Shown: in pieces, positions 47,786 through 64,000 of the stretch
How the letters are laid out: every line of letters begins with the position of its first letter
Position numbering within the stretch: the first letter of the stretch is position 1
Source of the DNA: Candidatus Binatia bacterium
GTDB taxonomy: Bacteria; Chloroflexota; Dormibacteria; Aeolococcales; Aeolococcaceae
Reading direction: 5' to 3'
Assembly: GCA_035624785.1 (NCBI GenBank)
Contig: DASPQV010000042.1
Coordinates: forward strand, 999 to 64,998
DNA length: 64,000 nucleotides
The notes under the pieces: model-generated
Database searches by the model: none
What the model was told of the DNA's origin: nothing
What the model saw: the letters and a program-made list of their open reading frames with translations, nothing else
Position numbers and translations under genes: made by a program

Positions 47786-49060
47786 GTGAGCGTCGCCGCT
47801 TCCCGACTCGACAACCGCTACATGGAGGCCTTGGGCCCCCTCCGGCCGCTCGTCGAGGACGACAGCCTGACCGAGATCATGGTCAACGGTCCGGAGATGG
47901 TCTACGTCGAGCGGAAGGGCAAGATCCTGCTCACCGACATCCGGTTCGACGACGAAGCCCATCTGCTCCGCGTGATCGACACCATCGTCTCCTCGGTGGG
48001 ACGTCGCGTGGACGCCCGCACCCCGCTCTGCGACGCACGGCTGCTCGACGGATCCCGAGTCAACGTGGCCATCCCGCCGGTCGCCCTGGACGGGCCGCTG
48101 CTCACCATCCGCAAGTTCTCCAAGGATCCCTACCAGGTCTCCGACCTGATCGGCTTCGGCACCCTGACCCAGGAGGGAGCCTCCTTCATCCAGGCGTGCG
48201 TCCTGGCCCGGGCCAACATCGTGATCTCGGGCGGGACCGGCGCCGGCAAGACCACCCTGCTCAACGTCTGCTCGGGATTCATCCCCATCGACGAGCGGAT
48301 CATCACCATCGAGGACGCCGCCGAGCTGCAGCTGCACCAGGAGCACGTCTGCCGTCTGGAGTCGCGGCCCTCCGATGTCAACGGTGAGGGCCAGATACGG
48401 ATCCGCGACCTGGTCATCAACTCGCTGCGGATGCGGCCCGACCGGATCGTCGTCGGCGAGTGCCGCGGCGGCGAGGCCCTGGACATGCTCCAGGCGATGA
48501 ACACCGGCCACGACGGCTCGATGACGACCATCCACGCCAACAGCCCCCGCGACGCCCTGGCCCGCCTCGAGACCCTGGTGCTGATGGCCGGCATGGATCT
48601 CCCCCTCAAGGCGATCCGGCAGCAGGTGGCTGCCGCGATCAACCTGGTGATCCAATTGGCTCGCCTCAAGGACGGGTCCCGCAAGATCGTCTCCGTCACC
48701 GAGGTGGTGGGGATGGAGGGCGAGACGATCACCATGCAGGAGATCTTCCGGTTCGAGCCCAGGGGCGCCGACCCGGCCACGGGCAAGATCGTCGGGGAGT
48801 TCGCCCTGACCGGGATCAGGCCCCAGATCATCGACCGCCTCTTCGACATGGGGATCCCGCTGCCGCCGCGCCTGATGCAGCTGTTCCCCGACCGGCGGCA
48901 GCTGCAGCACGCGGCCATGGTCAGCGCCGCCCGCTCCCAGCCCCAGCCGGGCAACGGGATGCCGGGCATGGGAGCCGGGCCGGGCTACGGTCCGCCCCCC
49001 GGCCTGGGGATGATGCCCGGGATGCCGCCGGCGCCGCCCGGTCCCGGACGTCGCGGCTGA
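47786..49060 (+). CDS. cpaF: CpaF/TadA-type secretion ATPase (type II/IV secretion NTPase)
   Basis: [18 protein letters not shown], Walker [13 protein letters not shown], Asp/His boxes [36 protein letters not shown] start with AGGAG 8 nt upstream; the 213 codons before it in the listed ORF are S/P/R junk. C-terminal Gly/Pro/Met-rich tail. Confidence 0.85.
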
Positions 49061-49141: not shown

Positions 49142-50338
49142 TCAGACCCCGAGGATCTCGAGGATGCGGCGCTCGTCGATGGGCGGGCTGGACGGCCGGG
49201 CGAGCAGGAAGCCCTGGCCGTGGGTCACCCCGATGTTGCGAAGAGCGCGCAGCTCAGCCTCGGTCTCGATGCCCTCGGCGACGATGGTGGTCTGGGTCTC
49301 CCGGGCGAAGGCCACCAGAGCGTAGGAGAGGGCCCGCCGCGGCCGGTCACCGTCGATCCCGCGGGTGAGCGAGATGTCGAGCTTGATGATGTCGGGGGAG
49401 AGCAGGAGGATGTGCCGAAGACTCGCGAACCCGGCCCCGGCGTCGTCGACCGCCACCCGCACTCCAGCGTCGCGAAGCGGACGCAGGACCCGGGCCAGCG
49501 CCTCGTAGTCGGCCACCGGGGCGTGCTCGGTCATCTCCATGACGATCCGGTCCTCGGGCACCGCGCCCAGCATGTCGCCGAGGTCGCGATGCAGCAGGGT
49601 GGTCGGTGACACGTTGAGGGAGAGGTAGGCGCTGGTGGGCAGCTCCGGCAGACCGGCCAGAGCCGCGCTGATCGCGAAGGTCTCGAGGTCCTCGCGCAGG
49701 CCGACGTCCTCCGCCTCCTGGAACCACTGCAGAGGCATGCCGGTATCGAAGCGGGCCAGCGCCTCGACCCCGCTGACCAGGCCTCGGGCCAGGTCGACGA
49801 TGGGCTGGTAGACGGGCCGGACCCCGCCGTGCTCGATGACCGTGCGGATCCGGGTCAGGATCCTCTCCCTGGCGGCCTCGGCGGCCTCCTTGCCGGCCAG
49901 CTCGCCGCTCAGCTCTCGGACCACCGTGCTGGCCACGTCGGCGGAGAAGGCGGACTCGCCGCGAAGCACCCGCTGGATGGTCTTGGTGACCTCGTCGGGC
50001 ATGGAACCCTTGACCAGGTAGGCGCTGGCACCGGCGCGGAGCATCTCCAGGATGCTGGCCCGGTCGCCGTAGGCGGAGAGGGCGACGATGCGGGTCTCCG
50101 GGCTGCCAGCCAGGATGCCCCGGGCAGCCTCGGGGCCGCCACCGCCGGGCATCTTGACGTCCAGGATGGCCACGTCCGGACGCTCCTTGATCGCCTCGGC
50201 GATGGCGGCGTCCGCGTCGGCGGCCACCGCCACCACCTCGAGACCGTCCTCGAGCTCGAGGAGCTCGCGGAGAGCATCGCGGATGTTGGCATCGTCATCC
50301 GCGATCAGCACCCTGACCCTGAGCTGGTCGCCGATCAC
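49142..50338 (-). CDS. response-regulator receiver fused to EAL domain (c-di-GMP phosphodiesterase)
   Basis: REC (VLIADDD...ILDVKMP...ALSA). EAL core has PVYQPIVDL, EALAR, EMTE, DDAGAGFASL, KLD and EGIET motifs. Confidence 0.85.
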   Translation of the reverse strand: MIGDQLRVRVLIADDDANIRDALRELLELEDGLEVVAVAADADAAIAEAIKERPDVAILDVKMPGGGGPEAARGILAGSPETRIVALSAYGDRASILEMLRAGASAYLVKGSMPDEVTKTIQRVLRGESAFSADVASTVVRELSGELAGKEAAEAARERILTRIRTVIEHGGVRPVYQPIVDLARGLVSGVEALARFDTGMPLQWFQEAEDVGLREDLETFAISAALAGLPELPTSAYLSLNVSPTTLLHRDLGDMLGAVPEDRIVMEMTEHAPVADYEALARVLRPLRDAGVRVAVDDAGAGFASLRHILLLSPDIIKLDISLTRGIDGDRPRRALSYALVAFARETQTTIVAEGIETEAELRALRNIGVTHGQGFLLARPSSPPIDERRILEILGV

Positions 50339-50644: not shown

Positions 50645-52294
50645 CTACCCCTCGGTGGTCGGTTGGAACAGCTCCTCGGCGACCAGCTCGCCCTGGGCGC
50701 GCAGCGTCTCCATCGCCCTGGGAATGATGCCGGTCGGGGTCATCTCGCCGATCACCTGACCGGTGTCAGGATCGATCCCCCGCTGTCGGAAGGTGAAGAT
50801 CTCCTGCTGGCATACCTCTCCGCCTTCGGCGCCCAGCACCTCGGTGATGCTCACCACCTTGCGGGTGCCGTCGCGAAGACGGGACTGGTGAACGATGACG
50901 TTGATGGCCGAGCCGATCTGCTCGCGGATGGCACGGGAGGGCAGCTCCGCGCCGGCCATCAGGACCATGGTCTCCAGACGGCTGATGCAATCCCTGGGGT
51001 TGTTGGCGTGGAGCGTGGTCAGCGACCCGTCGTGACCGGTGTTCATGGCCTGGAGCATGTCCAGGGCCTCCCCGCCGCGGCACTCGCCCACCACGATCCG
51101 GTCCGGGCGCATCCGCAGGGCATTGATGACCAGCTCCCGGATGGTCACCCGGCCGCGCCCCTCCACGTTGGCCGGCCTGGTCTCCAGGGTGACCACGTGC
51201 TCCTGGCGCAGCTGCAGCTCGGCGGCGTCCTCGATGGTGACTATCCGCTCGTCCTCGGGGATGAAGCTCGAGAGGATGTTCAGGGTGGTGGTCTTTCCAG
51301 AGCCAGTGCCGCCCGAGACCACCATGTTCAAGCGGGCCCGGACGCAGGAGCGCAGGAAGGTCACCATGCCCGCGGTCACGGAACCGAACCGGAGCAGGTC
51401 GTCGGAGGTCAGGGCCTCCTTGGCGAACTTCCGGATGGTGACCACCGGGCCGACCAGGGACAGCGGGGGGATGATGACGTTGACCCGGGACCCATCCTTG
51501 AGGCGGGCGTCGACCATCGGCGACGACTCGTCCACCCTCCGGCCGACGGTGCTCACGATCCGGTCGATGACCTGCATCAGCTGTTCCGTGCTCTCGAACA
51601 CCACCGGGCTGCGCACCAGCTTGCCCCGCTCTTCGACGTAGACCTGCTCCGGGCCGTTGACCATGATCTCGGTCAGCTCCGGGTTGGCGAGCAGCTCTTC
51701 CAGGGGACCCAGACCCAAGACGTCGTGGATCAGGATCTCGATGACCCGCTGCCGGTCCTGACGGCTGAGGGTCAGGCTCTGCTCGACGATGACCTCGCTG
51801 ACCAGCTCGGCGATCTTCTGCTCCACCACGTCGGGAGGCGCGGAGTCGGTGTTGCCAGCCAGCTCCTCGACCAGCCGCTGATGAACGCGGGAGCGGAGCT
51901 GGCTGTACGCGCCGCCCTGCTGCCTGGGGTGGACCCGGGAGCCGGCGGTCCGGTTGAGCAGTGACGCGGCCCGGGGACCGTCCGGCGGGCCACCCGGCTC
52001 GGCGCCCCTGCCGAGCAGGTGGGGGGGCACCGGCGGGGCGGGAGCGGACCGGCCGTAGGTGGGAACCGCGGGCTGCCGGGCCGGCGAGGCCGGCGCCGGA
52101 GGGTTGGTGACCAGGGACCGCGCCAGCCAGGCCGGCCTCTCGGACGCCGGCTCGGAGACCGCCGGGGCCTGGCCCGGGCCGGGCGTCTGCCCCGGGGCGG
52201 GCGGCAGCGGCTGAGCCGGAGCCTGCGGGGAAGGCGCCGGTGGGGCGGCGTTGCCTTCCTCGGCCTTGCGCTGGACGCGATCGAGAAGCGACAT
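50645..52294 (-). CDS. cpaF: second CpaF/TadA-type secretion ATPase with ~170-aa Pro-rich N-terminal region
   Basis: [63 protein letters not shown]. Confidence 0.85.
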   Translation of the reverse strand: MSLLDRVQRKAEEGNAAPPAPSPQAPAQPLPPAPGQTPGPGQAPAVSEPASERPAWLARSLVTNPPAPASPARQPAVPTYGRSAPAPPVPPHLLGRGAEPGGPPDGPRAASLLNRTAGSRVHPRQQGGAYSQLRSRVHQRLVEELAGNTDSAPPDVVEQKIAELVSEVIVEQSLTLSRQDRQRVIEILIHDVLGLGPLEELLANPELTEIMVNGPEQVYVEERGKLVRSPVVFESTEQLMQVIDRIVSTVGRRVDESSPMVDARLKDGSRVNVIIPPLSLVGPVVTIRKFAKEALTSDDLLRFGSVTAGMVTFLRSCVRARLNMVVSGGTGSGKTTTLNILSSFIPEDERIVTIEDAAELQLRQEHVVTLETRPANVEGRGRVTIRELVINALRMRPDRIVVGECRGGEALDMLQAMNTGHDGSLTTLHANNPRDCISRLETMVLMAGAELPSRAIREQIGSAINVIVHQSRLRDGTRKVVSITEVLGAEGGEVCQQEIFTFRQRGIDPDTGQVIGEMTPTGIIPRAMETLRAQGELVAEELFQPTTEG

Positions 52295-52532: not shown

Positions 52533-53642
52533 GTGATCCAGGCCGTGATCCATGCGGAGGCGGAGCCGGCAGCGATCGCCACGAGCGCGGCGGAGGCGGC
52601 CGAGGACCCGCCCAGCCAGGCCTGGGAGACCCTCTGCCGCACCGCCGACCTGGTCAGGGCGGACGGACCAGCGGCCCCGGCCGGGAGGCACGGTTGGGGC
52701 CGGCGCGCCCTGCTCGCCGCCGGGCTGGTGGCCGCCGGGTTGTCGGTGGCGGCGGTCTGGCACACCCAGCCGGCCAGCGCCGACGGGGGCGCCGACGCCG
52801 ACCTCTTCGCCCTGACCAACCAGGACCGGGCGAGCAACGGCGTCCCCGCCCTGGTCGACAACTCCACCCTCAGCTCGATCGGCGAGAACGCTCCCTACAG
52901 CGGGTGCAGCGGAGCCGGCACCGTCAGCGGCCGAGCTCAGGACATGATCAACCGCGACTACTTCTCCCACCAGATCCCGCCGTGCGGCCAGTACGTGTGG
53001 CCGATGATGACCGCCTACGGCGTCGACTACCGATCGGCCGGCGAGAACATCGGCTGGGTCGGCGGGATCAGCGGCGCTGACAGCGCCGCCCAGTGGATCA
53101 ACAACGCCTTCATGAACAGCCCCGACCACCGCGCCAACATCCTCGACCCCAGCTACACCGACCTGGGGACGGGAAGCGCCCAGACCGCCTCCGGCCAGTC
53201 CTGGACCTGCCCGGCGTCGGAGGGCTGCCAGGGCAGCTACCAGCAGGTATGGATCTTCGCCGAGGAGTTCGCCCAGCTTGCCGCCGCCCCCAAGCCGACG
53301 CCCACGCCCACGGCGCGGCCGACCGCGACGCCCAAGCCAGCGCCAGCCTCCACGCCCACACCGGCTCCCCAGCCCACCTCGACGCCGGCGCCCAGCTCGG
53401 CCCACCCGTCACTCGTCTCCTCCCCCTCCGCGGCCTCCCCCCCGACCGCCGCCACCTCACCGACCCCGGTCACGACGACAGTCCCGACGCCGAGCCCGAA
53501 CCCCGCCCCCACGGCACCGGCGACATCCTCCACGGTCCCGGCGGCAGCCCTGGAGACCGCCCTCCCCGCCCTCGACTTCCGCGGCCTGGGGCTGATCTCC
53601 GACACCATCGAATCGACCCTGGAAGCGTTCCTCTTCGACTAG
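52533..53642 (+). CDS. CAP/SCP (PR-1/YkwD-like) domain protein with Pro/Thr-rich C-terminal region, secreted or membrane-anchored
   Basis: Hydrophobic segment RRALLAAGLVAAGLSVAAVW, then DLFALTNQDRASNGVPALVDNSTL...NRDYFSH...GENIGW...NNAFMNSPDHRANILDPSYTDLGTG, typical of the CAP domain. Followed by ~120 aa of PT repeats. Start is uncertain. Confidence 0.7.
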   Translation: MIQAVIHAEAEPAAIATSAAEAAEDPPSQAWETLCRTADLVRADGPAAPAGRHGWGRRALLAAGLVAAGLSVAAVWHTQPASADGGADADLFALTNQDRASNGVPALVDNSTLSSIGENAPYSGCSGAGTVSGRAQDMINRDYFSHQIPPCGQYVWPMMTAYGVDYRSAGENIGWVGGISGADSAAQWINNAFMNSPDHRANILDPSYTDLGTGSAQTASGQSWTCPASEGCQGSYQQVWIFAEEFAQLAAAPKPTPTPTARPTATPKPAPASTPTPAPQPTSTPAPSSAHPSLVSSPSAASPPTAATSPTPVTTTVPTPSPNPAPTAPATSSTVPAAALETALPALDFRGLGLISDTIESTLEAFLFD

Positions 53643-53712
53643 AGTTGCGGACAATGTCGCCACATACAAGCGGGCGCCGCGTCCACCCCGGTCAACTCCC
53701 GACCCCGCAACG

Positions 53713-54543
53713 ATGGAGCGGATCCTGAGCGAAGACAGCAGCGCCGCCGCGCCCTCCGGCCCGCCCCCGGTGATCCGGGTGGAGGCGCTCTCCAAGAGCT
53801 TCCACATCAGCCGCATGCCGCGGGCAGTGCTGCGCAGCCTGTCCTTCAGCGTCGCGGCCGGTGAGTTCGTGGCCGTGATGGGTCAGAGCGGGGTCGGCAA
53901 GAGCACCCTGCTGCACATCATGGGCGGCCTCGAGCCCCCGGACTCGGGGCGGGTGGTGATCGATGGACGCGACGTGTACGCCATGGGCGACGCGGAACGG
54001 TCGGCCTTCCGGCGGGACCACGTCGGGTTCGTCTTCCAGTTCTTCAACCTGGTGCCCAGCCTCACCGCGGCGGAGAACGTCGCCCTGCCGCTCAGGCTGC
54101 GGACCGCACGGCATGGGGACGGCGCGGCCCGGCTGGACCGGCACACCATCGCCGAGCGGGTGAACGCGCTGATGGACCTGCTCTCCCTCCGCGGCCTCCA
54201 GGGGCACGGTCCCGAGGAGATCTCGGGGGGCGAGCAGCAGCGGGTGGCCATCGCCCGGGCCCTGGCCGCCGCTCCCACGCTGCTGCTCGCCGACGAGCCC
54301 ACCGGCAACCTCGACCGTCCCAGCGGTGACGAGGTCATGGGGCTGCTCAGCCGGCTCTGCCGGGAGCGATCCCAGACCACGGTGCTGGCCACCCACAACG
54401 CGCGGGTCGCCGCCCGCGCCGACCGCGTCCTGGTCCTCCAGGACGGAGCGCTGGTCGACGACATCGTGATCGCGACCGGCACCCATGCGGACGCTGGCGC
54501 CTTCCGGGAGCTGGTCGGCCGGCTCGAGCGCCATGACCTGTAG
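53713..54543 (+). CDS. ABC transporter ATP-binding protein (LolD/MacB-type)
   Basis: Walker A GQSGVGKSTLL, signature ISGGEQQRVAIARAL, Walker B LLLADEPTGNLD. Confidence 0.9.
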   Translation: MERILSEDSSAAAPSGPPPVIRVEALSKSFHISRMPRAVLRSLSFSVAAGEFVAVMGQSGVGKSTLLHIMGGLEPPDSGRVVIDGRDVYAMGDAERSAFRRDHVGFVFQFFNLVPSLTAAENVALPLRLRTARHGDGAARLDRHTIAERVNALMDLLSLRGLQGHGPEEISGGEQQRVAIARALAAAPTLLLADEPTGNLDRPSGDEVMGLLSRLCRERSQTTVLATHNARVAARADRVLVLQDGALVDDIVIATGTHADAGAFRELVGRLERHDL

Positions 54544-54600
54544 CGCCGCGCCGGAGGCCGCGGCCGGCCAGGGTCGGGAGGTCACCTCGACCGAGCCCGC

Positions 54601-57075
54601 GTGATCCGCCCCCTCTTCACCCGCCACCTGACGGCGCGCCCCGGCCGGACCGCCCTGACCGCCCTCGCCGTGTGCCTGGGCGTGGCCGTCATGCTTGGCG
54701 TCCAGGTCGATCTCGCGGGGGTGAGCGCCGAGGCCGAGGCGGCGGCGGGGCTGCGAGCCGGCGCCTCAGGGTTGGACGTTCGGGCGACCGGCGCCAGCGG
54801 TCTCAGCACCGATCAGATCGCCGACCTCGCCGCCCTCCAGGGCGTGACCCAGGTGGTGCCCCTCTATCAGAAGAGGGTGATCGCCGAGGCGGCGCAGCCC
54901 GGAGCTGTCACGGCCACGGTGACTGTGGTCGGGATCCAGGACGGGGGCGCGGCACTGCGGCGGGTGACCCTGACCGCCGGCCGTCTTCCCCGGGCATCGA
55001 GCTCCGACGAGGTCGCCCTGGACAGCGGGCTGGCACAGGCGCTCGCCCCAACCGGACGGCGTCTCGCGATCGGCGGCACCGTCATGCTGACCACCAGCAC
55101 CGGGACCAGCGGCTTCCGGGTGGTCGGGCTGACGTCGGCCAGCGGCGTCAGCGCGAGCTTCACCCAGGACGCGGTCTTCATGCCCGCCGCGGAGCTGCTC
55201 CGCGCCTTCCCGCTCGGCCTCCACGCCTCGCTGGCCGCGCTGCAGCTCGGGCCTCGAGCCAATGCAGCCCAGGTTGCCGCCCGGGCTCGGGGACGGCTCG
55301 GGAGCACGATCACCACCTTCGACCCCGCATCGGACACCGGCGATCCGCTCTCCCAGGTCTCCTCGCTTCTCCTCCTGATCAGCGTGCTCAGCATCGTGGT
55401 CGGCGCCGGGGTCACCGCCAACACGGTGAGCCTGGCGGCCCTGGAGGGACGCCGCGAGATCGGCCTGCTGCGAGCCGCCGGCGCGTCGGCTGGCCAGGTA
55501 TTCCGGCTGCTGACCAGCGAGGCCCTGGTGATCGCGGCGGCCGGCGCGGTCGTGGGCGTCGGTGCCGGCATCGGCCTGGGTGCCGCTCTGCAGGCGGCTT
55601 ACGGAACCGGGCAAGCATCCCCCGTGCCTCTCCGGGTCGACTGGCTGACCGCGCTCCTGGTGGCCCTCGGCGGCATCGTCGCCGCCACCCTCGCTGCCGC
55701 GGTGCCCGCCCTCGCCGCGGCCCGGCAGCCCATCCTCGACGCCCTGAGCCCGGAGACCGCCGGCCGCCGGGAGCCTCTGCGGGGCTGGACCCTGGGAGCC
55801 GCGCTGCCCCTGGTCGCGCTGGCCGCGGTCGCCGACCTCGGTGGGGCGGGGCTGGTGCCAGTCGGGGCGGTCGCGCTCCTCCTCGCCATCCTCCTCTGCC
55901 TACCCCTGGTGGTGCCGCCGCTGACCCGGCTGCTCGCCCGCCTGCTGCGCACCCTGCTGCCCGAGTGCGAGGTCGCCGCGGCCGGGCTGAGCCGCAACCG
56001 CAACCGCACCGCCCTGACCCTCTCCGGCTTGGTCACCGCGGTGGCGGCAGCCAGCGCCTGCAGCATCCTGGTGGCGGGAAGCTCGTCGGCAGCCGACCAG
56101 TGGGTCGACCACCTCTTCATCGGCGACACCCTGGTCCGCAGCCCGGTCACCGAGCACCCGGCCGTCGCTTCGCAGCTCAGCCAGCTGGCCGGCGTCGAGG
56201 TAACCCCGCTGCGATTCTTCCCGGCGGTCGTGGACAGCGACGTGATCGGCGTGGTGGCGCTGGACAGCCGTGCCCAGGAGGCCGGCGGCGCGTTCCAGAT
56301 GGTCGCCGGCGATCGCGGCGACGCCTTCGCCGCCCTGAGAGGCGGAGCCAACCTGCTGGCTCCGTCAGTCCTGGCGGATGCCGACGACTGGCAGGTGGGC
56401 ACCGAGCTGCCCGTATCCACCCCGACAGGAACGGTCATCTTCCGAGTCGCCGGCATCCTCGAGCACTCCTTTCCTGCTGCCGACGGCCGGGAGTCGCTGG
56501 TCATCGACAACCGGGAGGCGGTCCGGGTCTTCGGCAGCGACGCGGACGGATTCGACGACCTGGAGGTGCTCTCCCCGGGGCGGGGGGCCGACGTGGTCAG
56601 GACGGCGAGCCGTTACGGTCTGTCCGCCACGCCGGTGAGCGCCATCAGAGCCGCGGTGGAATCAGCCCTCGGCTCGACGATCGGAATCCTGCCGGCGCTC
56701 TCCTGGATCACCGTGATCATCGCCATGCTCGCCCTGATCACCACCGTCTCGGTCAGCGTCCGCAGCGGCCGGCGCGAGCTGGCCCTGCTCCGGGTGGTCG
56801 GCCTCAGCGCCTCGCAGATCCGCCGCTTCGTGCTCGCCCAGGCTGGGTTCCTGGGCGTCGCCGCCGCCCTGGTGGGCACCGGGGTGGGCTGTCTGCTCGC
56901 CCTGCCGATGCTGCAGGCGGGCGCCAGCCCGGGGTTCGCACCCGCGTTTGCCCTGCCGGCCCTCACCGTGGTGGTGGTCGCGGCCGGAGTGGTGGCCTCA
57001 GCGGTGGCCGCCGCCGTCCTGCCGGCGCGCCGAGCGGCGCAGGCTGACATCGTGAGCGCGGTGCAGCGCGTATGA
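54601..57075 (+). CDS. FtsX-family ABC permease with duplicated FtsX domain (824 aa)
   Basis: Two units of TM + large extracytoplasmic loop + 3 TM. Directly downstream of the ATPase gene. Confidence 0.8.
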   Translation: MIRPLFTRHLTARPGRTALTALAVCLGVAVMLGVQVDLAGVSAEAEAAAGLRAGASGLDVRATGASGLSTDQIADLAALQGVTQVVPLYQKRVIAEAAQPGAVTATVTVVGIQDGGAALRRVTLTAGRLPRASSSDEVALDSGLAQALAPTGRRLAIGGTVMLTTSTGTSGFRVVGLTSASGVSASFTQDAVFMPAAELLRAFPLGLHASLAALQLGPRANAAQVAARARGRLGSTITTFDPASDTGDPLSQVSSLLLLISVLSIVVGAGVTANTVSLAALEGRREIGLLRAAGASAGQVFRLLTSEALVIAAAGAVVGVGAGIGLGAALQAAYGTGQASPVPLRVDWLTALLVALGGIVAATLAAAVPALAAARQPILDALSPETAGRREPLRGWTLGAALPLVALAAVADLGGAGLVPVGAVALLLAILLCLPLVVPPLTRLLARLLRTLLPECEVAAAGLSRNRNRTALTLSGLVTAVAAASACSILVAGSSSAADQWVDHLFIGDTLVRSPVTEHPAVASQLSQLAGVEVTPLRFFPAVVDSDVIGVVALDSRAQEAGGAFQMVAGDRGDAFAALRGGANLLAPSVLADADDWQVGTELPVSTPTGTVIFRVAGILEHSFPAADGRESLVIDNREAVRVFGSDADGFDDLEVLSPGRGADVVRTASRYGLSATPVSAIRAAVESALGSTIGILPALSWITVIIAMLALITTVSVSVRSGRRELALLRVVGLSASQIRRFVLAQAGFLGVAAALVGTGVGCLLALPMLQAGASPGFAPAFALPALTVVVVAAGVVASAVAAAVLPARRAAQADIVSAVQRV

Positions 57076-57689
57076 CGGGCCCCAGGCTGGGTGCCCTAGT
57101 GGCCCTGGCGGTCCTGCTCGGGGGATGCGGGAGCCCCACGTCGCCACTGCTGCTGCGCGGTGATCCGCGCGGCTACCTGCTCAGCCTGGAACAGCTTCCC
57201 TCGCCGGACTTCACCGTGTACAGCGGGGCCGCCGCCACCGATGCGGGCTGGCTGGATACCGGCAGCGCCGCGACGCTGACCCGCGACGGGTTCCAGGCAG
57301 CGGCCACCGTCGAGTACCTCCGCCAGGGCGAGCTGGTGGACTTGGCGACGAGCAACGGCCCGATCACCCTCACCTCCGCGGTGGCCAGGTTCGCGAGCCC
57401 CGGCGGAGCGGCGGCCGCAGTCGGCAGCCTGGCGTCGGCTCTGAATGCACGGGCCGGCGCCGTCCCGCTCTCGACCGGGCCGCTCGGAGACGGCGGCCAC
57501 GCGGTTTCCAACAGCGCCACCCTCGACTCCGTGGCGGTGGTCCGGATCACCGTGGTGTGGCGGGTCGCCAACCTGGTCAACAGCCTGGCCGCTGACGGGC
57601 GCTCCGGAGGCCTCGACCTCGACCAGCTCCTCCCGGTGGCCCGGGCGCAGACGGCGGCCGAGCAGGCCTCGACGGGCGCCTCCGGGTAA
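57072..57689 (+). CDS. putative lipoprotein
   Basis: Signal peptide with lipobox LLGGC. 4-nt overlap with the permease gene. Confidence 0.6.
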   Translation: MTGPRLGALVALAVLLGGCGSPTSPLLLRGDPRGYLLSLEQLPSPDFTVYSGAAATDAGWLDTGSAATLTRDGFQAAATVEYLRQGELVDLATSNGPITLTSAVARFASPGGAAAAVGSLASALNARAGAVPLSTGPLGDGGHAVSNSATLDSVAVVRITVVWRVANLVNSLAADGRSGGLDLDQLLPVARAQTAAEQASTGASG

Positions 57690-57722: not shown

Positions 57723-59576
57723 TCAGGCGGCGTGGTGGCCCAGGCCCGCGCCCAGGGGGCGGTCCTCGCAGAGCAGACGGTGCACCTCGGCGGGGGGCAC
57801 CGGCCGGGAGAACAGGAAACCCTGGTAGGCGTCGAGGCTGTGGCCCTCGAGCCGCATCAGCTGCTCCTCGGTCTCCACGCCCTCGGCGATCACCCGGAGC
57901 CCGAGGCTGCGTCCCAGGGTCACCAGGGCGCAGAGCAGAGCGCCGGGATCGGGAACCGTCTCCGTCCCGGCCTCGTCGAGAAGGAAGCTGCGGTCGATCT
58001 TGATGGTGCTGACCGCGAGGTGATGGAGCTTGCCCAGGTTCGAGTACCCGGTGCCGAAGTCGTCCAGGGAGATGGTCACCCCCCGGCTGGCCAGGGCCCG
58101 GAGGACCTCGGAGGCTGCATGGGAGTCGACCATGGCCGCCGACTCCGTGATCTCCAGCTCGAGGACGTTGGGCGGCGTGTCCGTCTCGCCGAGGCAGTCC
58201 AGCACGGTGGTGACCAGGCTGCGGTCGAGGAGCTGGCGGGATGAGACGTTGACCGCGACGCGGATGCGGCCCAGCCCTTCACGCCGCCACTCGGCAGCCT
58301 GGGAGAGGGCGGAGCGGAGCACAAAGCGGCCGATGTCGGCGATGACACCCACGTCCTCCGCGATGGGGATGAATCGACCCGGGGGCACCTCGCCGAGCAC
58401 CGGGTGGTGCCAGCGGCAGAGCGCCTCCAGCCCGACGATGCGCCGTGATTGGGCGTCGACCTCGGGCTGGAAGACGACGCTGATCTCGCCCCGGTCGAGA
58501 GCGAGGGGAAGCTGCTGCTCGATGAGCAGACGATCCTCGGCCTCCTCGGAGAGCGCCATCTCGAAGCGGAGCAGCCGCTCTGCGGTGGACCTGGCCCCCC
58601 GCTCCGCCATCGCCGCGTGCCGCATCAGGGTCTCGGCGCTGTCCCCGTCCGAGGGAGCGACGACGATGCCGATGCTGGCGCTGAGGCGCAGGTCGCCGCC
58701 CGTCTCGCTGCAGGGGGACGAGATGGCCGCGATGATCGAGCGGGCCATGTAGACGGCCTCCTCGACGAAGACCAAGTCGGGGAGGAGGACGGCGAACTCG
58801 TGGTCCGACCAGCGGGCGACCATCCAGGCCCGCTGCGCAGCGCTCCGCTTGAGGGCGTCAGCGGTCTCTTCGGCGCTGCCGACCGCGACCTCGACGCAGT
58901 CGGACACCCGCTCGGCCATCTCGGTTATGAGCCTCTCGCCGGCCTCGTGGCCGAGGGTCTCGATCACGGTGCGGAGACGCTCGACGCCGATGAGCAGGAC
59001 ACCGGTCGAGCGACCCGAGGGGCGGGCGGCGGGGAGCTCGGCCCCCAGGCGCCAGCGGAAGGCGGAGCCATTGGGCAGCCCGGTGGCCCGGTCGTGGGAC
59101 GCGTCGAACTCCTTCTCCCGGGCGATGCGGTCGCGCTCCGAGGCCCAGCGGGTGACGTCGATGCCGACCGAGGTGACCGCGGCGGGATGGCCGCTGTCGT
59201 CGAAGCTCGGGCAGGCGGACCAGGCGACGATCCGGGTGCGGCCGTCGCGCGCCCGGAGCGGAAGCTCGATGCAGCCGGCCTCCTCACCGTCCCGGAGAGC
59301 GCGATCGAAGGCGCGCTGGGCGCGCCGACGGTGCTCGGCCGGGACCAGGGCCTCGTGCCACAACCGCCCCGCCAGCTGCCCCCATTCCCATCCGCCCAGG
59401 GAGAGCAGGTCCGCGTTGGCGAACGCAAGCCGCCCCCCCGGGTCGGTGATCATCGCCAGGATCTGATTCGCCCTGCCCGGGCGCTCATCCCCGCTTGCAA
59501 ACTCCGGATGGCACCGCGGCCCTTCGGCAAGCATCGGGTGCGACCTCTCCGTACTCCGCCGTTCTCCCCCCGGCAT
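57723..59576 (-). CDS. PAS - degenerate GGDEF - EAL protein (c-di-GMP phosphodiesterase)
   Basis: PAS-like N-terminus. The GGDEF domain starts RATGLPNGSAF but its signature reads SDHEF instead of GG[DE]EF. EAL domain has EALCRWHHP, ELEITE, DDFGTGYS, KIDRSF, EGVETEEQ. Confidence 0.85.
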   Translation of the reverse strand: MPGGERRSTERSHPMLAEGPRCHPEFASGDERPGRANQILAMITDPGGRLAFANADLLSLGGWEWGQLAGRLWHEALVPAEHRRRAQRAFDRALRDGEEAGCIELPLRARDGRTRIVAWSACPSFDDSGHPAAVTSVGIDVTRWASERDRIAREKEFDASHDRATGLPNGSAFRWRLGAELPAARPSGRSTGVLLIGVERLRTVIETLGHEAGERLITEMAERVSDCVEVAVGSAEETADALKRSAAQRAWMVARWSDHEFAVLLPDLVFVEEAVYMARSIIAAISSPCSETGGDLRLSASIGIVVAPSDGDSAETLMRHAAMAERGARSTAERLLRFEMALSEEAEDRLLIEQQLPLALDRGEISVVFQPEVDAQSRRIVGLEALCRWHHPVLGEVPPGRFIPIAEDVGVIADIGRFVLRSALSQAAEWRREGLGRIRVAVNVSSRQLLDRSLVTTVLDCLGETDTPPNVLELEITESAAMVDSHAASEVLRALASRGVTISLDDFGTGYSNLGKLHHLAVSTIKIDRSFLLDEAGTETVPDPGALLCALVTLGRSLGLRVIAEGVETEEQLMRLEGHSLDAYQGFLFSRPVPPAEVHRLLCEDRPLGAGLGHHAA

Positions 59577-60051
59577 CCGCCGGGCTTGTTGCCCGGATAT
59601 GGTGGCCTGGGACGATGGGCGTGAAAGACGCTCTCAACCAGCCTGGCGCGTCCAGGCGACACCAACGTCATCGTCACCACATCAGATGGCCTCCTGTGAC
59701 GCCACGTTGCTGAGACCTCTCATCTGCGCTCAGCGGGGCGGGAGACGGGGGTGGGCGGGGCCGTCGGCGACGGGGGCCGGCCCGACTCAGGCGGTCAGCC
59801 CGCTTCCCCGGGCGGCGCTCACCGGCGTCCCGGGTGACGGGGCAACCTCAGAGCGTAGCGATCCTCCCGATCTCCCACCATCGCCTCATATGAATCAATC
59901 AAGTTCATCGCCGCCACCCAACCGCGTTACCGGCCTGTAGCCGGATGGGCCGAGACATCGTCAGACGGTCTGCCTCAGCCTACCCGGTGGCGTCTAGTGC
60001 ATTTGAACTAGTTGCCCCATCAGATCAGAACCAGGAAAGGAACCGAAGATC

Positions 60052-60711
60052 ATGGAAAGGCTCAGGAGAAGGCGGTCACTCCGGCTGGCGTTCACCCTCA
60101 GCACCGCCGTCGCCGGCTGCGCACTGGTGGGGTGGGGTGGGTTGTCGGCCTGGCAGGCCTACACCGTCAACGCCGGCAACCAGGTGGCGGCGGGCACCCT
60201 CGCCCACAGCAACGGGGCGAGCTGCGTCTCCCTTCTCGGCACGATCCCGACGAGCTCAGGGACCGGCTGGTGCTCGGCCGCGGTGACCATCTCCGGCGTC
60301 GACCCGGCGAACTGGACCGGAACCACCGGCACCATAGCGATCGCCAACACCGGATCGCTGCAGAGCACCTTCGCCCTCAGCATGGGGACGGGAGCTCAGA
60401 CACCGACCGGCGGCCTCTGCGCCGACGTGACCCTGCAGGTGACTGATCCGAACCACGCCGCGCCGGACTCGACCGGCCAGGTGTGGGCAGCCACAGCTCT
60501 CACCGGGACGTTCACGGCTGCCAACCTTTACAACAACGCTGCGACGCCCAGCCTGACGTGGACCGGCGGCGGCGCGCAGGGTTCGGGCTCGGGCGCGACC
60601 GGTGACACCTTCACCGTGACGGTGGCGCCCGGTGCCGGTTTCAACACCCACTCCACCGACGCGGGGACGAGCTGCAGCTTCGGGCTGCTCTTTACCCAGA
60701 CAGCGGCCTGA
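60052..60711 (+). CDS. TasA/camelysin-like secreted protein, paralog 1
   Basis: N-terminal RRRRSLRLAFTLSTAVAGCALVGWGGLSAWQAYTVNAGN resembles a SipW-cognate-type signal (compare TasA LVGGGTWAAFND). Internal IANTGSLQSTFALSMG resembles the TasA N.GSL motif. Thr/Gly/Ala-rich, 219 aa. Strong SD AGGAAAGGAA. Confidence 0.6.
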   Translation: MERLRRRRSLRLAFTLSTAVAGCALVGWGGLSAWQAYTVNAGNQVAAGTLAHSNGASCVSLLGTIPTSSGTGWCSAAVTISGVDPANWTGTTGTIAIANTGSLQSTFALSMGTGAQTPTGGLCADVTLQVTDPNHAAPDSTGQVWAATALTGTFTAANLYNNAATPSLTWTGGGAQGSGSGATGDTFTVTVAPGAGFNTHSTDAGTSCSFGLLFTQTAA

Positions 60712-60723
60712 GGCAGGACGCCA

Positions 60724-61404
60724 GTGACTACGCATGAGTTCAAGGAGATGAGGACCATGGAGAAGCGCATGGGCAGGCGATCCCTGAAGGTCGCCCTGGT
60801 GGCCTTCACGGCGGTCGCAGGGACCGCGCTGGTCGGCTGGGGCGGGTTGGCGGCCTGGAACGCCTACACAGAGAACGCGGGGAACAGCGTGGCGGCCGGC
60901 ACCCTCACCCACAACAACTACGTGAGCGCCAACTGCGCCTCCAACCTGGGGACGGTCCCGGTTTCGAGCGGCCCTGGCTGGTGCTCCGCCTTCATCACGG
61001 TAACCAATGTCGACCCGGCGGCTGGCCTGCCAGTCACCGGCAACGTCAAAATCGATAACACCGGCTCATTGCAGAGCACATTCGCGATGAGCATGCCGGC
61101 GGCGGCGGTGGGGACCGGGGGAACGATCTGCCAGGACCTGACCTTGTCGATGACCGACAAGAACGGCACCAACGTCTACCCGGCCGCCGCTCTTAGCACC
61201 CAGATGGGCTCGACGAGCCTCAAGAACAACGCGGCGACGCCGTCGACGACCTGGTCGCCCAACGGGGTGGCCGGAACCGGCTCAGGTGCCACCGGCAACA
61301 CCTTCACCTTCACAGTGGCAGCGGGCGGCGGCTTCGCGAACGACTTCGCTGACGCGGGCCAGAGCTGCAGCTTCAACATCCTCTTCACCCAGACTGCGGC
61401 CTGA
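60724..61404 (+). CDS. TasA/camelysin-like secreted protein, paralog 2
   Basis: Same architecture as paralog 1: ...ALVGWGGLAAWNAYTENAGN...IDNTGSLQSTFAMSMP...; about 50% identical by eye. True start is probably an internal ATG (MEKRMGRRSLK...). Confidence 0.6.
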   Translation: MTTHEFKEMRTMEKRMGRRSLKVALVAFTAVAGTALVGWGGLAAWNAYTENAGNSVAAGTLTHNNYVSANCASNLGTVPVSSGPGWCSAFITVTNVDPAAGLPVTGNVKIDNTGSLQSTFAMSMPAAAVGTGGTICQDLTLSMTDKNGTNVYPAAALSTQMGSTSLKNNAATPSTTWSPNGVAGTGSGATGNTFTFTVAAGGGFANDFADAGQSCSFNILFTQTAA

Positions 61405-61423
61405 GATCCCTCCTGGACCGATC

Positions 61424-61463
61424 GAGAGGCCGGGCGGTGCGCCGCCCGGCCTCTCTCTTTGTG
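61424..61463 (+). terminator. rho-independent terminator after the TasA-like pair
   Basis: GAGAGGCCGGGCGG-TGCG-CCGCCCGGCCTCTC: a perfect 14-bp stem and 4-nt loop, followed by TCTTTGTG. Confidence 0.8.
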
Positions 61464-61714
61464 CCGTTGACAGCGGCAGGCGGGTGCTAGCCGGTGGGTG
61501 CGCGGTGGCCCAGTCGCCGTACACCCGGGGCAGCGGAGGCAGGATCTGGATCCCCTCATCGGCGCGGACCAGGTCCCAGCCGGCCTCGTGCACCTTCCAG
61601 TGATGGTGCCGGCGGATCAGGACAACGTTGGTGAGCTCACTCGGTTGCGCTCCCGGCCCCCCGCGCTTATCTGCCGTGGCCCCGAGGCCCGTTTTCACCG
61701 TCGTGCGAGGGAGC

Positions 61715-62038
61715 TCACCCTCCAGCCGGAGCACTCCCCGGAAGAGGATCGCGCCAGTACCAGCGGTGGATCTTCTCAGCGAACTCCCGCGTACCAGCTG
61801 CCGGGTGCCCGAGGCCGAAATGGTGGCTCATCTGCTGATCGAGGAAGGACTCCAGCTGGTCTTGGGACATGCCCCCACGGAGCTGGCCGATTACTCCGAG
61901 AAGGCAGTCATACTCGTCTGGAGGGGCAGGATGTGACGTCCCGTACACCCCGATTGGATCCCACTCGGCAAGGATCGCCCGAAGCTCCGTTTGCTTCTGG
62001 CGCAGCGCGTACTTGTGGCGCGAAATGTCGTCGGGCAC
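61715..62038 (-). CDS. small hypothetical protein (107 aa)
   Basis: ORF in the lower-GC islet. LRAILAEWDPIGVYG...PDEYDCLLG, acidic and cytosolic-looking. Possible family match (a WDPIG-containing DUF), unverified. Confidence 0.45.
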   Translation of the reverse strand: MPDDISRHKYALRQKQTELRAILAEWDPIGVYGTSHPAPPDEYDCLLGVIGQLRGGMSQDQLESFLDQQMSHHFGLGHPAAGTREFAEKIHRWYWRDPLPGSAPAGG

Positions 62039-62211
62039 TATCGACAGACTAGCAGCGTCGCCGACGAGTGCTTAGAGCATCCCTACCTCCTTTTGGTGAA
62101 AGCCTGCAGGCCACCGTTGCACGGACGGCAGAGTCGGTCCTCGAGACGGATAGGGAAGCGTCTAGATTGACCAACTTGATCAGATTGGCCGCCTCATTCC
62201 AGGGTAGGGAA

Positions 62212-62239
62212 GGGGATGTGTTAAGGACGTGCGAGGTTG
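62212..62239 (+). repeat. 28-bp conserved element, copy 1 (SD + ATG-TGT-TAA mini-ORF)
   Basis: GGGGATGTGTTAAGGACGTGCGAGGTTG. The TTG at its 3' end is the start of ORF 62237. Confidence 0.6.
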
Positions 62240-62728
62240 ACCGAGGTCACCCGGCCTCAGCCGGAACCCGGGTCGGTCGCATACTCTCCGCGAGTGCGAG
62301 AACGAGACGAGTACGAGTCCGGTTGGGCCGAGCTGGGGCGCCGGCGACTGGCGGGCGAACTTTCAACGCCCGAAGCCTCTGCCCTCGCGCTGACAAGCAT
62401 TAGGCGCATAGCCCAGCGGATCGTCGCCAGCGACGCGGACCTGTTGCGCGCCGCGGTAGGCATCTACTTCTTCGCTTGGTTCGGAGGAGACTGGGACGAT
62501 GATCAACCAGCCGAGGAGCTGAAGCACTGGGGTGCTGAGTTCATCCAACTCGCCGATGCGTTGGAATGCAACCAGGACGACGAAGCATCGCGCGAGGCCT
62601 GGACTGCGTTCATCCGCAAGGCAGCTACCGCTGGTTTGGCTGGTGAGGAGTTCCCGGCTTGGAGCGATGCCCCCAGTGCTCGTCCGCCTCATCGAGGCTT
62701 CCCGGAGCCGGAGGAGGGGATGTGTTAA
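62237..62728 (+). CDS. hypothetical protein (163 aa, acidic, Trp-rich)
   Basis: TTG start embedded in repeat copy 1. Ends ...EEGMC, whose last two codons plus the stop are the mini-ORF of repeat copy 2. Confidence 0.45.
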   Translation: MTEVTRPQPEPGSVAYSPRVRERDEYESGWAELGRRRLAGELSTPEASALALTSIRRIAQRIVASDADLLRAAVGIYFFAWFGGDWDDDQPAEELKHWGAEFIQLADALECNQDDEASREAWTAFIRKAATAGLAGEEFPAWSDAPSARPPHRGFPEPEEGMC

Positions 62729-62743
62729 GGACTTGTGAGGTTG
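62716..62743 (+). repeat. 28-bp conserved element, copy 2
   Basis: GGGGATGTGTTAAGGACTTGTGAGGTTG (25/28 identical to copy 1). Confidence 0.6.
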
Positions 62744-62753
62744 CTCGCCTAGA

Positions 62754-63266
62754 TCACCCCAGTGCATCCGCGAGGGATCGCGCTGCGTCGAGGAGCGCTG
62801 CCAATCGCCCCTCCCAGTCTGAGCCCTCGACGCCCAGAACCGCCAAGTTCGGTCGCACCAGCCATCGCTCACCGAATGGCGCCATCACCCACTCCACATG
62901 GAGCGGCACACCGATCGCCTCCATCTCACTGAAGTGGGAGCGGGCGCGGTCAACATGGCTGGACAAGGCCTGCATTTGGGCGTGAAAACGTTCGTTCTCA
63001 GCCAGCGTCCAAGCCTCCCCGATTGGAAGGTACTCTTGCCACCGCGGGTGGCGTCGAGCCTGACGCCCAGGGCGACATCCCTTCCATGGTGCGTGCTTCC
63101 TCGCGCCGGGCTGAGGAGCGTGCAGCCCTACCCACTCCCAGTCATCGATACGTTCGCGGAGTTCCCAGTCCTCAAGGTCACCCTGCCTGCGCAGCCAGAA
63201 CCAGAAGTTGAGCACCTCACTGACGTCCTCCTCCCAGAAAAACGTGGAGCCGCCGGGAACGAACAT
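62754..63266 (-). CDS. hypothetical protein (170 aa, Trp/Glu-rich)
   Basis: MFVPGGSTFFWEEDVSEVLNFWFWLRRQGDLEDWELRERIDDWEW... has protein-like composition. The plus-strand alternative is S/R/P-rich. Confidence 0.45.
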   Translation of the reverse strand: MFVPGGSTFFWEEDVSEVLNFWFWLRRQGDLEDWELRERIDDWEWVGLHAPQPGARKHAPWKGCRPGRQARRHPRWQEYLPIGEAWTLAENERFHAQMQALSSHVDRARSHFSEMEAIGVPLHVEWVMAPFGERWLVRPNLAVLGVEGSDWEGRLAALLDAARSLADALG

Positions 63267-63387
63267 GAGAACGACTCTATGCGATCACTGAGGGGCTGAG
63301 CGGGTGGCAGCAGTGCAATCCATTCAGACCGTGGCTAGTCGTGTGTTGCCCAGCCTTCCGGTTCGGCCCCGGCCTCCTCGGGGCTCA

Positions 63388-63415
63388 GGGGATGTCTTGA
63401 GGATTGACGAGGTTG
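63388..63415 (+). repeat. 28-bp conserved element, copy 3 (ATG-TCT-TGA mini-ORF)
   Basis: GGGGATGTCTTGAGGATTGACGAGGTTG (21/28 identical to copy 1, same SD-ATG-codon-stop-...GAGGTTG layout). Confidence 0.5.
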
Positions 63416-63515
63416 GTCAGCCCGGATGTGACAGCGATCGCTACCATGCCTGCCAACGATCCCAGGAGGTCTCGCAGACCTGGCCAGATTCGATCGTGCC
63501 GCGGCAATCTCGGCG

Positions 63516-64000
63516 GTGAGCCGACTTCGGCCCGAGGCTCGGGTTGCGTTCGCCGCGCTCGCAGCTGAGAGGCTGCTTCCGTACTACCGGCAGTTTCACG
63601 CGGAGACCCGCTGGGGAAGTGCGGGGCCTCTCGAGCGAGCTATCGACCTTGCTTGGGAGCACGTGACCATTCACCGCGTCTCCCACGAAGTCCTTCACGA
63701 GGCCTGCGGAGCGTGCGAGTTGGTCGTACCTGACACTGACGACTTCAGTACCCCCCTCGCTTCCCGGGCGCTAGACGCTGCGAGTGCCGCCCTCAGCGCC
63801 CTCCGGGCTTGCGAGAATCCGGCGCCGGAGATCGCCGCCGCGGCGGCCGAGAGCGCATGGGAGGCCGCCTTCGGGGCGGCCCAATTGAGACATGCGGTCA
63901 ACCCAGACGGCGTGCTGATCGCAACGCCCAAACAGCTCACCATCGCGGCGGCGAGCGATCTGGTCCGGCGCGAAGAAGCAGCTCAATCTGGTGCGCTCCG
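63516..64000 (+). CDS. hypothetical protein, 5' portion (runs off window end)
   Basis: Open frame from the stop at 63429-63431 to the window end. GTG at 63516 (CTG alternatives at 63450 and 63480, with AGGAGG at 63464-63469). Translation ...AAERLLPYYRQFHAETRWGSAGPLERAIDLAWEHV... is protein-like. Not in ORF track because it has no stop. Confidence 0.35.
   Translation, partial: MSRLRPEARVAFAALAAERLLPYYRQFHAETRWGSAGPLERAIDLAWEHVTIHRVSHEVLHEACGACELVVPDTDDFSTPLASRALDAASAALSALRACENPAPEIAAAAAESAWEAAFGAAQLRHAVNPDGVLIATPKQLTIAAASDLVRREEAAQSGAL

Follow-up and report, generated by a model that had tools for sequence, protein, structure and literature searches.

What do two adjacent secreted-protein genes encode when their products recall the matrix-fibre protein TasA, and why does no signal peptidase gene lie beside them? 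This question is raised by two open reading frames (ORFs), ORF1 and ORF2, near the end of a 64,000-nucleotide stretch (the window) of contig DASPQV010000042.1 in assembly GCA_035624785.1. A preliminary description of this DNA had read the pair as TasA/camelysin-like proteins with a variant SipW-type signal. We find that ORF1 and ORF2 are very divergent members of the TasA/camelysin (Peptidase_M73) superfamily, as judged by profile comparison and by fold. It is probable that they are the first two genes of an array found in Dormibacterota, the products of which would be exported by Sec, cleaved by a SipW-type peptidase and assembled into TasA-like donor-strand fibres.

The two genes are paralogs, with 57% identity across the full length of their products (E 4e-77). 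Each protein has a basic N-terminus and a hydrophobic core followed by the motif WGGL(A/S)AW.AYT.NAGN..AAGTL.H, and the peptides that the preliminary description quoted (ALVGWGGLSAWQAYTVNAGNQVAAGTLAH, ALVGWGGLAAWNAYTENAGNSVAAGTLTH and I(A/D)NTGSLQSTFA(L/M)SM) are each found in the translations. A search for homologs returned 218 proteins of ~215 residues with 50–79% identity, all of them labelled hypothetical and none with a Pfam domain; these rule out a reading of the pair as chance ORFs. Both proteins carry four cysteines after the signal region, which are invariant or nearly so throughout the family (C60, C76, C125 and C204 in ORF2 numbering). The earlier count had been three to four cysteines per protein; ORF1 totals five, as an additional cysteine lies within its signal peptide.

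The start of ORF2 differs between sources. The mechanical ORF list placed it at a GTG at 60724, which is not supported, having no homolog behind it, while the homologs and the deposited protein P0001 begin at the ATG at 60757, with an AAGGAG 8 nt upstream. The two genes are separated by 45 nt that contain no terminator and are therefore probably co-transcribed. The strong terminator that had been described after the pair is indeed there: the hairpin, with a stem of 14 bp (12 of them GC pairs), a 4-nt loop and the T-rich tail TCTTTGTG, has a fold z-score of -3.77, and such hairpins are kept after individual paralogs in related loci.

The evidence that the pair belongs to the TasA/camelysin superfamily comes from searches with a profile of the family (A2). 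Among 1.84e9 library proteins, its weakest significant matches (P0190, P0194, P0195, P0198 and P0202), with library-wide E values of 8.5e-5 to 4.6e-4, all independently pass the gathering score of PF12389, the Peptidase_M73 family; P0198, for example, scores 68.9 bits over positions 3–195 of 196. In addition, P0190 passes TIGR04088, the cognate_SipW model, with a score of 26.9 (cutoff 19); the score of P0202 is 18.5. The sequences of these five M73 proteins grade smoothly from the canonical GGTFATF.A.T.N.GN.FASGTL into the WGGLAAW.AYTENAGNSVAAGTL of the family. Alignment of A2 to a profile built from them (A3) with hhalign gave a probability of 99.2% and an E value of 1.4e-19 over 180 columns that run from the signal peptide to the C-terminal strand. 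The A3 profile in turn retrieves the TasA structures 5OF1 and 8AUR from the PDB at ~1e-7. We compared A2 also with a second Peptidase_M73 set (A7), made up of five proteins that were gathered with P0198 as query, P0198 itself being excluded; four of these have PF12389 on record and one is named 'spore coat-associated protein N'. This comparison gave 96.6% and an E value of 4.9e-10 over 74 columns, from the end of the signal to the NTGSL strand. Homology to proteins that pass the PF12389 threshold is therefore statistically supported.

Structure prediction led to the same superfamily. The first AlphaFold2 model, from a shallow alignment (effective number of sequences ~1.9), had a predicted local distance difference test score (pLDDT) of 70, and Foldseek matched it to generic jelly-rolls only. 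The second model, from a more diverse alignment, had a pLDDT of 79 with a β-sandwich core above 89, and its best match among 350,542 PDB chains was the TasA fibre 8AUR (E 4e-4, probability 1.00, 235 columns). The next matches were CanA, AbpA (7UEG), the Sulfolobus thread (7PNB) and chaperone-usher pilins; the best matches are thus all donor-strand-complemented fibre subunits. The predicted structure is a jelly-roll/β-sandwich of the TasA type. In the monomer models the proposed donor segment (residues 34–51) is of low confidence, as would be expected of a donor strand but is not proof of one.

Several results weigh against this assignment and the function built on it. Neither ORF matched any Pfam family, PF12389 included, at E ≤ 10, and the NCBIfam library yielded noise only, with no match to TIGR04088, TIGR04089, TIGR04090 or the TasA equivalog at that threshold. 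The family profile found no match among PDB sequences. When it was compared with just the TasA sequence of B. subtilis, the E value was a non-significant 0.18, though the highest-scoring local alignment did pair the equivalent N.GSL strand of the two. As the A3 proteins were picked among the A2 matches, the A2/A3 alignment is partly circular, and the A7 set mitigates this only in part, since its query P0198 is itself an A2 match and the alignment covers 74 columns. TasA was absent from the top 50 PDB matches of the first model, and the second, built without templates, had the five M73 proteins in its alignment and superimposes on 8AUR with a TM-score of only 0.39. The window holds no cognate SipW/endoplasmic reticulum (ER)-type peptidase in the locus of the pair. 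The HMMER comparison with Peptidase_M73 and the SipW-cognate TIGRFAMs that had been put forward as a check accordingly came back empty for both proteins; taken alone, it would have wrongly dismissed the relationship to TasA. The homology that had been claimed does not register with curated hidden Markov models, but it is established by the profile-to-library, profile–profile and fold comparisons.

The idea of a variant SipW-type signal fared well. Neither ORF matched TIGR04088 itself; the signal region is, however, in register with proteins that do, as the hhalign alignments span the GG-L-A-A-(W/F)...N.GN...GTL segment, and with those that match PF12389. The family profile matches P0190 chiefly through positions 9–57 and P0202 over positions 14–189. 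No other part of the family is as well conserved as the segment W.AYT.N.GN..AAGTL.H, in which W34, A36, Y37, T38, G42, N43, A47–L50 and H52 are invariant. In the 8AUR structure, mature TasA begins 14 residues ahead of its GTL motif, and this register places the predicted cut in the Dormibacteria proteins after L-(A/S)-A33, so that W34 would be residue 1 of the mature subunit.

Where, then, is the peptidase? The answer comes from related loci. In ~16 distinct Dormibacteria loci with enough sequence, gene order is identical. A T2SSE ATPase gene (minus strand) is followed by genes for a CAP-domain protein, an ABC ATPase, an FtsX-type permease and a lipoprotein (plus strand) and by a PAS-GGDEF-EAL gene (minus strand). 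Then come 2–6 TasA-like paralogs, the last two of which are always the divergent types par4 and par5, a peptidase of 424–478 residues, a 470–620-residue protein with a C-terminal tetratricopeptide repeat (TPR) region, CpaB/SAF, TadB and TadC, and finally a 282-residue protein (minus strand), CvpA and a response regulator (minus strand). The par4 and par5 proteins of locus L004 matched no Pfam family at E ≤ 10. The order persists in full in L054, from a lineage of 59% G + C, 10 points lower, in which the subunits are only 27–38% and the FtsX protein 29% identical. The peptidase gene overlaps that of the TPR protein by 4 nt, and cpaB, tadB and tadC follow within 170 nt on the same strand. Canonical M73 relatives outside Dormibacterota also stand directly beside a SipW-like gene, a short one, and have no Tad genes.

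With the archaeal/ER-type signal peptidase I model, TIGR02228, the peptidase of the relatives scores 60.3 and so exceeds the cutoff of 51.85; it also matches the SipW model NF046067 at 5e-11. It has a Pro/Ala-rich extension of ~240 residues, a transmembrane segment, GSMxP, HRI and KGDxN motifs, and a C-terminal transmembrane segment. The three motifs were assigned by eye as those of SipW/ER-type peptidases. The N-terminal extension, presumably cytoplasmic, is seen in L004 (12565–13839) and L054 (10682–12118) and is absent from the short SipW-like neighbours of canonical M73 genes (170–251 residues). The TPR protein (L004 13836–15449; L054 12380–13795) has a low-complexity, poorly conserved middle and a weak PilW-like match (E 0.012); its TPR-like C-terminal ~140 residues are 71% identical between distant lineages, a value that only the small response regulator exceeds.

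The preliminary description had noted that no signal peptidase is adjacent to the pair. This is correct for the window, where tblastn found no S26 or SipW-like gene in all 64 kb, but the window ends 2.6 kb downstream of the pair, and in all of the ~16 loci the peptidase directly follows the array. Indeed, when all L004 proteins were compared with the window by tblastn, synteny ran from the T2SSE gene through ORF2 and then stopped, with no Tad genes after the pair. At the nucleotide level, the window remains homologous to relatives past the 3' end of ORF2 and across the terminator hairpin, as far as ~61463. Synteny is lost about 10–40 nt beyond the terminator, with the break placed at ~61465–61520. 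Two independent assemblies break here: a Logan contig, from another run, stops at 61501, and the first position of a JGI contig is 61523. The assemblies of ENA and NCBI span the gap, and the join in the window is therefore an assembly branch point. It reflects either real strain variation, that is, a strain-specific replacement, or a chimeric assembly join. No tRNA was found that would make the break an integration site. Because the locus is cut just after the ORF2 terminator, the missing peptidase is a local break and says nothing about the system.

These data suggest how the array most likely works. The precursors would be inserted by Sec through their basic N-region and ~22-residue hydrophobic core, and the dedicated SipW/ER-type (Ser-His) peptidase would cut them at the outer face of the membrane, most likely after L(A/S)A33. 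The cut would expose W34-x-A-Y-T-x-N-x-G-N-x-V-A-A-G-T-L-x-H as the new N-terminus, and by homology with TasA, AbpA and CanA this segment may serve as the donor strand that enters the β-sandwich of the next subunit. Fibres would form outside the cell. They would probably be heteropolymeric, built from several paralogs among which par4 and par5 would act as specialised minor subunits, and the four conserved cysteines could form two disulfides that stabilise them.

The embedding of the array in a Tad-like locus invites the view that the TasA-like subunits are tied to that machine, which could act as a piston of the type II secretion kind that drives folded subunits or fibres through the envelope, or whose Flp pilins they could replace as the filament. 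The array and its peptidase are always placed between the ATPase gene and cpaB-tadB-tadC, even in the divergent L054 lineage, and the gene overlap and close spacing described above point in the same direction, as does an apparent shortage of pilins: a motif scan found no Flp/TadE prepilin motif in the 64-kb window, L004 or L054, and the called genes of these and the other loci inspected gave no Flp, TadE or Peptidase_A24 Pfam match. That scan is crude, however, and genes for pilins or a prepilin peptidase could be located at other genomic sites; the loci all come from one phylum, in which shared ancestry may explain part of the synteny. A precedent exists in Clostridium perfringens, for which type IV pilus-dependent release of BsaC/BsaA has been proposed (bioRxiv 10.1101/2024.11.04.621531), yet TasA and AbpA fibres need no such machine, and the canonical TasA-like/SipW cassettes outside Dormibacterota do without Tad genes. 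Moreover, the subunits lack a class III signal and their helix is predicted to be removed, so that they could not be extracted from the membrane in the manner of type IV pilins. On balance we think such a tie unlikely. Its fullest form is a hybrid filament, in which SipW-processed subunits would be made, exported or anchored via the contiguous Tad-like (type IVc) platform and switched by a PAS-sensing cyclic di-GMP (c-di-GMP) phosphodiesterase; the parts at hand are two CpaF-like ATPases, CpaB, TadB, TadC and a TPR protein whose translation would be coupled to that of an unusually long SipW, in a locus that encodes no Flp pilin. This, too, we put forward as a doubtful possibility. The ORFs are not themselves type IV (Flp/Tad) pilins or TadE/F pseudopilins, as neither contains G-x4-EY on direct reading and their conserved motif comes behind rather than ahead of the hydrophobic core.

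Alternatively, the proteins could share only ancestry with TasA and act as non-polymerising secreted or surface β-sandwich proteins, such as adhesins, envelope proteins or camelysin-type proteases. Polymerisation is here proposed from homology, the same genomes also carry single orphan copies at other sites, and the paralog BsaB has been reported to form only dimers (bioRxiv 10.1101/2024.11.04.621531). The family also owes its name to a reported protease activity of camelysin; direct reading of ORF1 and ORF2, however, revealed no HExxH or other metal-binding motif, and on this ground we reject a metalloprotease of the camelysin type. The only histidine of ORF2 is H52, within the conserved GTLxH. 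Three points make us consider the non-polymerising alternative quite unlikely: conservation within the family peaks in the segment equivalent to the TasA donor strand, fibre subunits account for all of the best fold matches, and multi-paralog arrays are typical of donor-strand heteropolymers. Even fibre subunits might carry an ordinary Sec signal, cut by the housekeeping type I signal peptidase, with the SipW likeness incidental. The predicted L-A-A|W site also fits the general -3/-1 rule, a generic peptidase has been suggested to process archaeal AbpA (PMC9245690), and no peptidase gene is near on the window contig or at the orphan loci. Nevertheless, the signal region is in register with TIGR04088- and PF12389-positive proteins, its motif is invariant even in the most divergent paralogs, and a SipW/ER-type peptidase gene directly follows the array in every complete locus, which makes housekeeping cleavage very unlikely. 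We therefore favour SipW-type cleavage and assembly into donor-strand fibres. The positions of the pair and of the other features of the window are collected in Table 1.

Table 1 The TasA-like gene pair and surrounding features, in window positions
Feature	Position	Strand	Remarks
Second T2SSE gene	47786–49060	+	
Receiver-EAL gene	49142–50338	-	Between the two ATPase genes
T2SSE (CpaF/TadA-like) ATPase gene	50645–52294	-	Bounds the conserved locus
Upstream conserved block	52533–57689	+	CAP-domain protein, ABC ATPase, FtsX-type permease (824 residues), 205-residue lipoprotein
PAS-GGDEF-EAL gene	57723–59534	-	GGDEF degenerate (SDHEF); EAL, DDFGTGYS and EGVE intact
Divergent intergenic region	59535–60051	.	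Two conserved blocks, ~59598–59705 and ~59885–60015
Near-invariant element	59985–60012	+	GTCTAGTGCATTTGAACTA core; ~40 nt upstream of ORF1 start; invariant or nearly so in 8 aligned loci
ORF1, TasA-like paralog	60052–60711	+	219 residues (P0068 / VEK76_10005); in related loci, the par2 type is nearest
ORF1 predicted SipW-type signal peptide	60052–60150	+	Residues 1–33; predicted cleavage LSA|WQAYT, from TasA register and alignment to TIGR04088-positive proteins
ORF2, TasA-like paralog	60757–61404	+	215 residues (P0001 / VEK76_10010); nearest to the par1/par3 type
ORF2 predicted SipW-type signal peptide	60757–60855	+	Residues 1–33; predicted cleavage LAA|WNAYT
Intrinsic terminator hairpin	61424–61455	+	
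Non-syntenic cassette-like region	61465–64000	.	G + C 0.63; in place of par4, par5, SipW-type peptidase, TPR protein, CpaB and TadB/TadC of relatives
DUF416 (PF04222) gene	63432–64000	+	E 3.5e-12; continues past the window end; sole recognisable Pfam family in the cassette-like region

The gene divergent from the pair keeps its position in all loci, with SDDEF in place of GGDEF in most relatives. By established motif rules, a degenerate GGDEF together with intact EAL motifs makes a phosphodiesterase more likely than a cyclase, and the protein is likely a PAS-sensing phosphodiesterase with a regulatory pseudo-cyclase domain. The c-di-GMP control of the array that had been suggested is a reasonable inference from this conserved adjacency only. 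The spacer between the two transcription units, given earlier as 476 bp, measures 475 bp if the GGDEF gene starts at 59576, but 517 bp with the start at 59534 that the public record and the homologs support. Beside the start of that gene, a noncoding block of ~120 nt (~59598–59705) is nearly invariant in 14 Dormibacteria loci. It holds the inverted repeat CGTCACA-N17-TGTGACG and has no Rfam match, and RNAalifold found no covariation support in it (+0.2). Given the lack of covariation and of Rfam matches, the intergenic blocks are more likely DNA-level control sites (operator or promoter) than structured RNA. The near-invariant element closer to ORF1 is a candidate promoter or operator of the array; a sigma-70 promoter scan found none. 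No c-di-GMP riboswitch or other Rfam family was detected in 59400–64000, where the only matches were sub-threshold and overlapped the terminator hairpin.

How widely is the family distributed? In a scan of 185,579 species genomes the family was found at 45 loci, each under a Dormibacterota name or under an automatic label given to a metagenome-assembled genome (MAG) that contains the same locus, and among 1.84 billion representative proteins the family profile matches only 83 clusters at E ≤ 1e-3. On the sequences searched, the TasA-like family is confined to Dormibacterota. Each genome has one main array and two or three orphan single copies. These orphans (L024–L045 and similar loci) sit away from any peptidase gene, and one class of them always has an ABC ATPase gene pair ~5 kb downstream. 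The named homologs of ORF1 and ORF2 are from Candidatus Dormibacteria/Dormiibacterota MAGs, with which the window shares 10 kb of gene order and 55–75% protein identity. The public label 'Candidatus Binatia' is, by this match in gene order and proteins, probably wrong.

The two T2SSE ATPases upstream of the conserved block are of 424 and 549 residues, and no pilin-like gene was seen among the small ORFs around them. Further upstream lie a ParA/CbiA-like gene (44283–45059) and ParA/ParB genes. On the other side of the pair, the cassette-like region contains, besides the DUF416 gene, small genes without family assignment. A minus-strand frame at its start (61465–61734, …LIRRHHHWKVHEAGWDLVRADEGIQILPPLPRVYGDW…) has no Pfam match and stays open through the hairpin and on into the strand opposite ORF2, as if a gene had been truncated where synteny breaks. 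A 28-bp repeat, GGGGATGTGTTAAGGAC(G/T)TG(C/T)GAGGTTG, occurs at 62212–62239 and 62716–62743, with a degenerate copy at ~63388–63415 (zero chance matches expected), and every copy contains both the stop codon that ends a small ORF (...EGMC*) and the TTG with which the following one begins. Two assemblies of the same population, from ENA and JGI, differ from the window from the precise end of the second copy onwards, where they continue with a region that encodes an FHA-domain protein. The arrangement resembles a variable gene-cassette array, possibly of orphan immunity-type genes.

It is becoming clear that donor-strand fibres of the TasA type are widespread as a scaffold for the biofilms of bacteria and archaea, yet their most divergent branches escape curated models. 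Our findings give an uncultured and globally abundant soil phylum, Dormibacterota, a concrete candidate for a matrix or adhesion fibre, and the family profile annotates several hundred proteins so far called hypothetical. The strictly conserved neighbourhood unites TasA-like subunits, a long SipW-type peptidase, a Tad-like platform and genes of c-di-GMP turnover. If it reflects function, it would add to the one experimental hint, obtained in Clostridium perfringens, that matrix proteins of the TasA family cross the envelope with the aid of type IV filament machines, and a hybrid filament, if real, would couple two systems so far held to be mechanistically separate. There is also a practical warning, in that the 'missing' peptidase is an effect of where a contig breaks and not of biology.

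The pair is a divergent branch of the TasA/SipW kind, and the conserved locus of the relatives is a new form of that kind; a literature search found no described TasA/SipW/Tad hybrid and no Dormibacterota fibre. Like B. subtilis TasA (tapA-sipW-tasA; PF12389; 5OF1, 8AUR), which is also the best PDB fold match, the proteins are secreted subunits of ~200 residues by prediction, with a SipW-type signal that ends in GG..A|, an N-terminal strand that ends in xGTL, an N.GSL strand and a C-terminal ...F..Q strand, and in relatives a SipW/ER-type peptidase gene lies beside the subunit genes. They differ in their motif (WGGLAAW.AYTENAGN rather than GGGTWAAFND), the lack of a direct HMM match, their four conserved cysteines and their number, 2–6 paralogs compared with one major subunit and TapA; no TapA-like gene was seen. 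SipW of B. subtilis has ~190 residues, whereas the Dormibacteria peptidase has 424–478, with its Pro/Ala-rich extension, and is encoded among Tad-like genes.

In Clostridium perfringens the type IV pilus genes are said to lie elsewhere in the genome, and the best-documented substrate that depends on them is reportedly BsaC. In Dormibacteria, by contrast, the array directly adjoins the genes of the Tad-like (type IVc) platform, and a von Willebrand factor A protein was not seen. The bsa operon of that species (sipW-bsaA-bsaB-bsaC) otherwise offers a close parallel, with remote TasA homologs in tandem, a SipW peptidase and a reported link to type IV filaments (bioRxiv 10.1101/2024.11.04.621531). 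The actinobacterial 'alternate-type signal peptide' proteins (TIGR04089, the RER_14450 family) and the BsaA family (TIGR04090) are likewise terrabacterial exported proteins with SipW-like signals. Neither ORF matches these families, and P0188 and P0189 are of ~490 residues with extra domains; P0188, a distant match of the family profile, matches TIGR04089 at 3e-4. AbpA of bundling pili (7UEG) and CanA of Pyrodictium cannulae (9HDI, 9H8B) are archaeal and lie in other gene neighbourhoods, and the AbpA operon has no dedicated peptidase (PMC9245690). Like the Dormibacteria proteins, however, they are very divergent TasA-like jelly-rolls that only profile–profile or fold comparison can detect, and they rank second and third among the fold matches.

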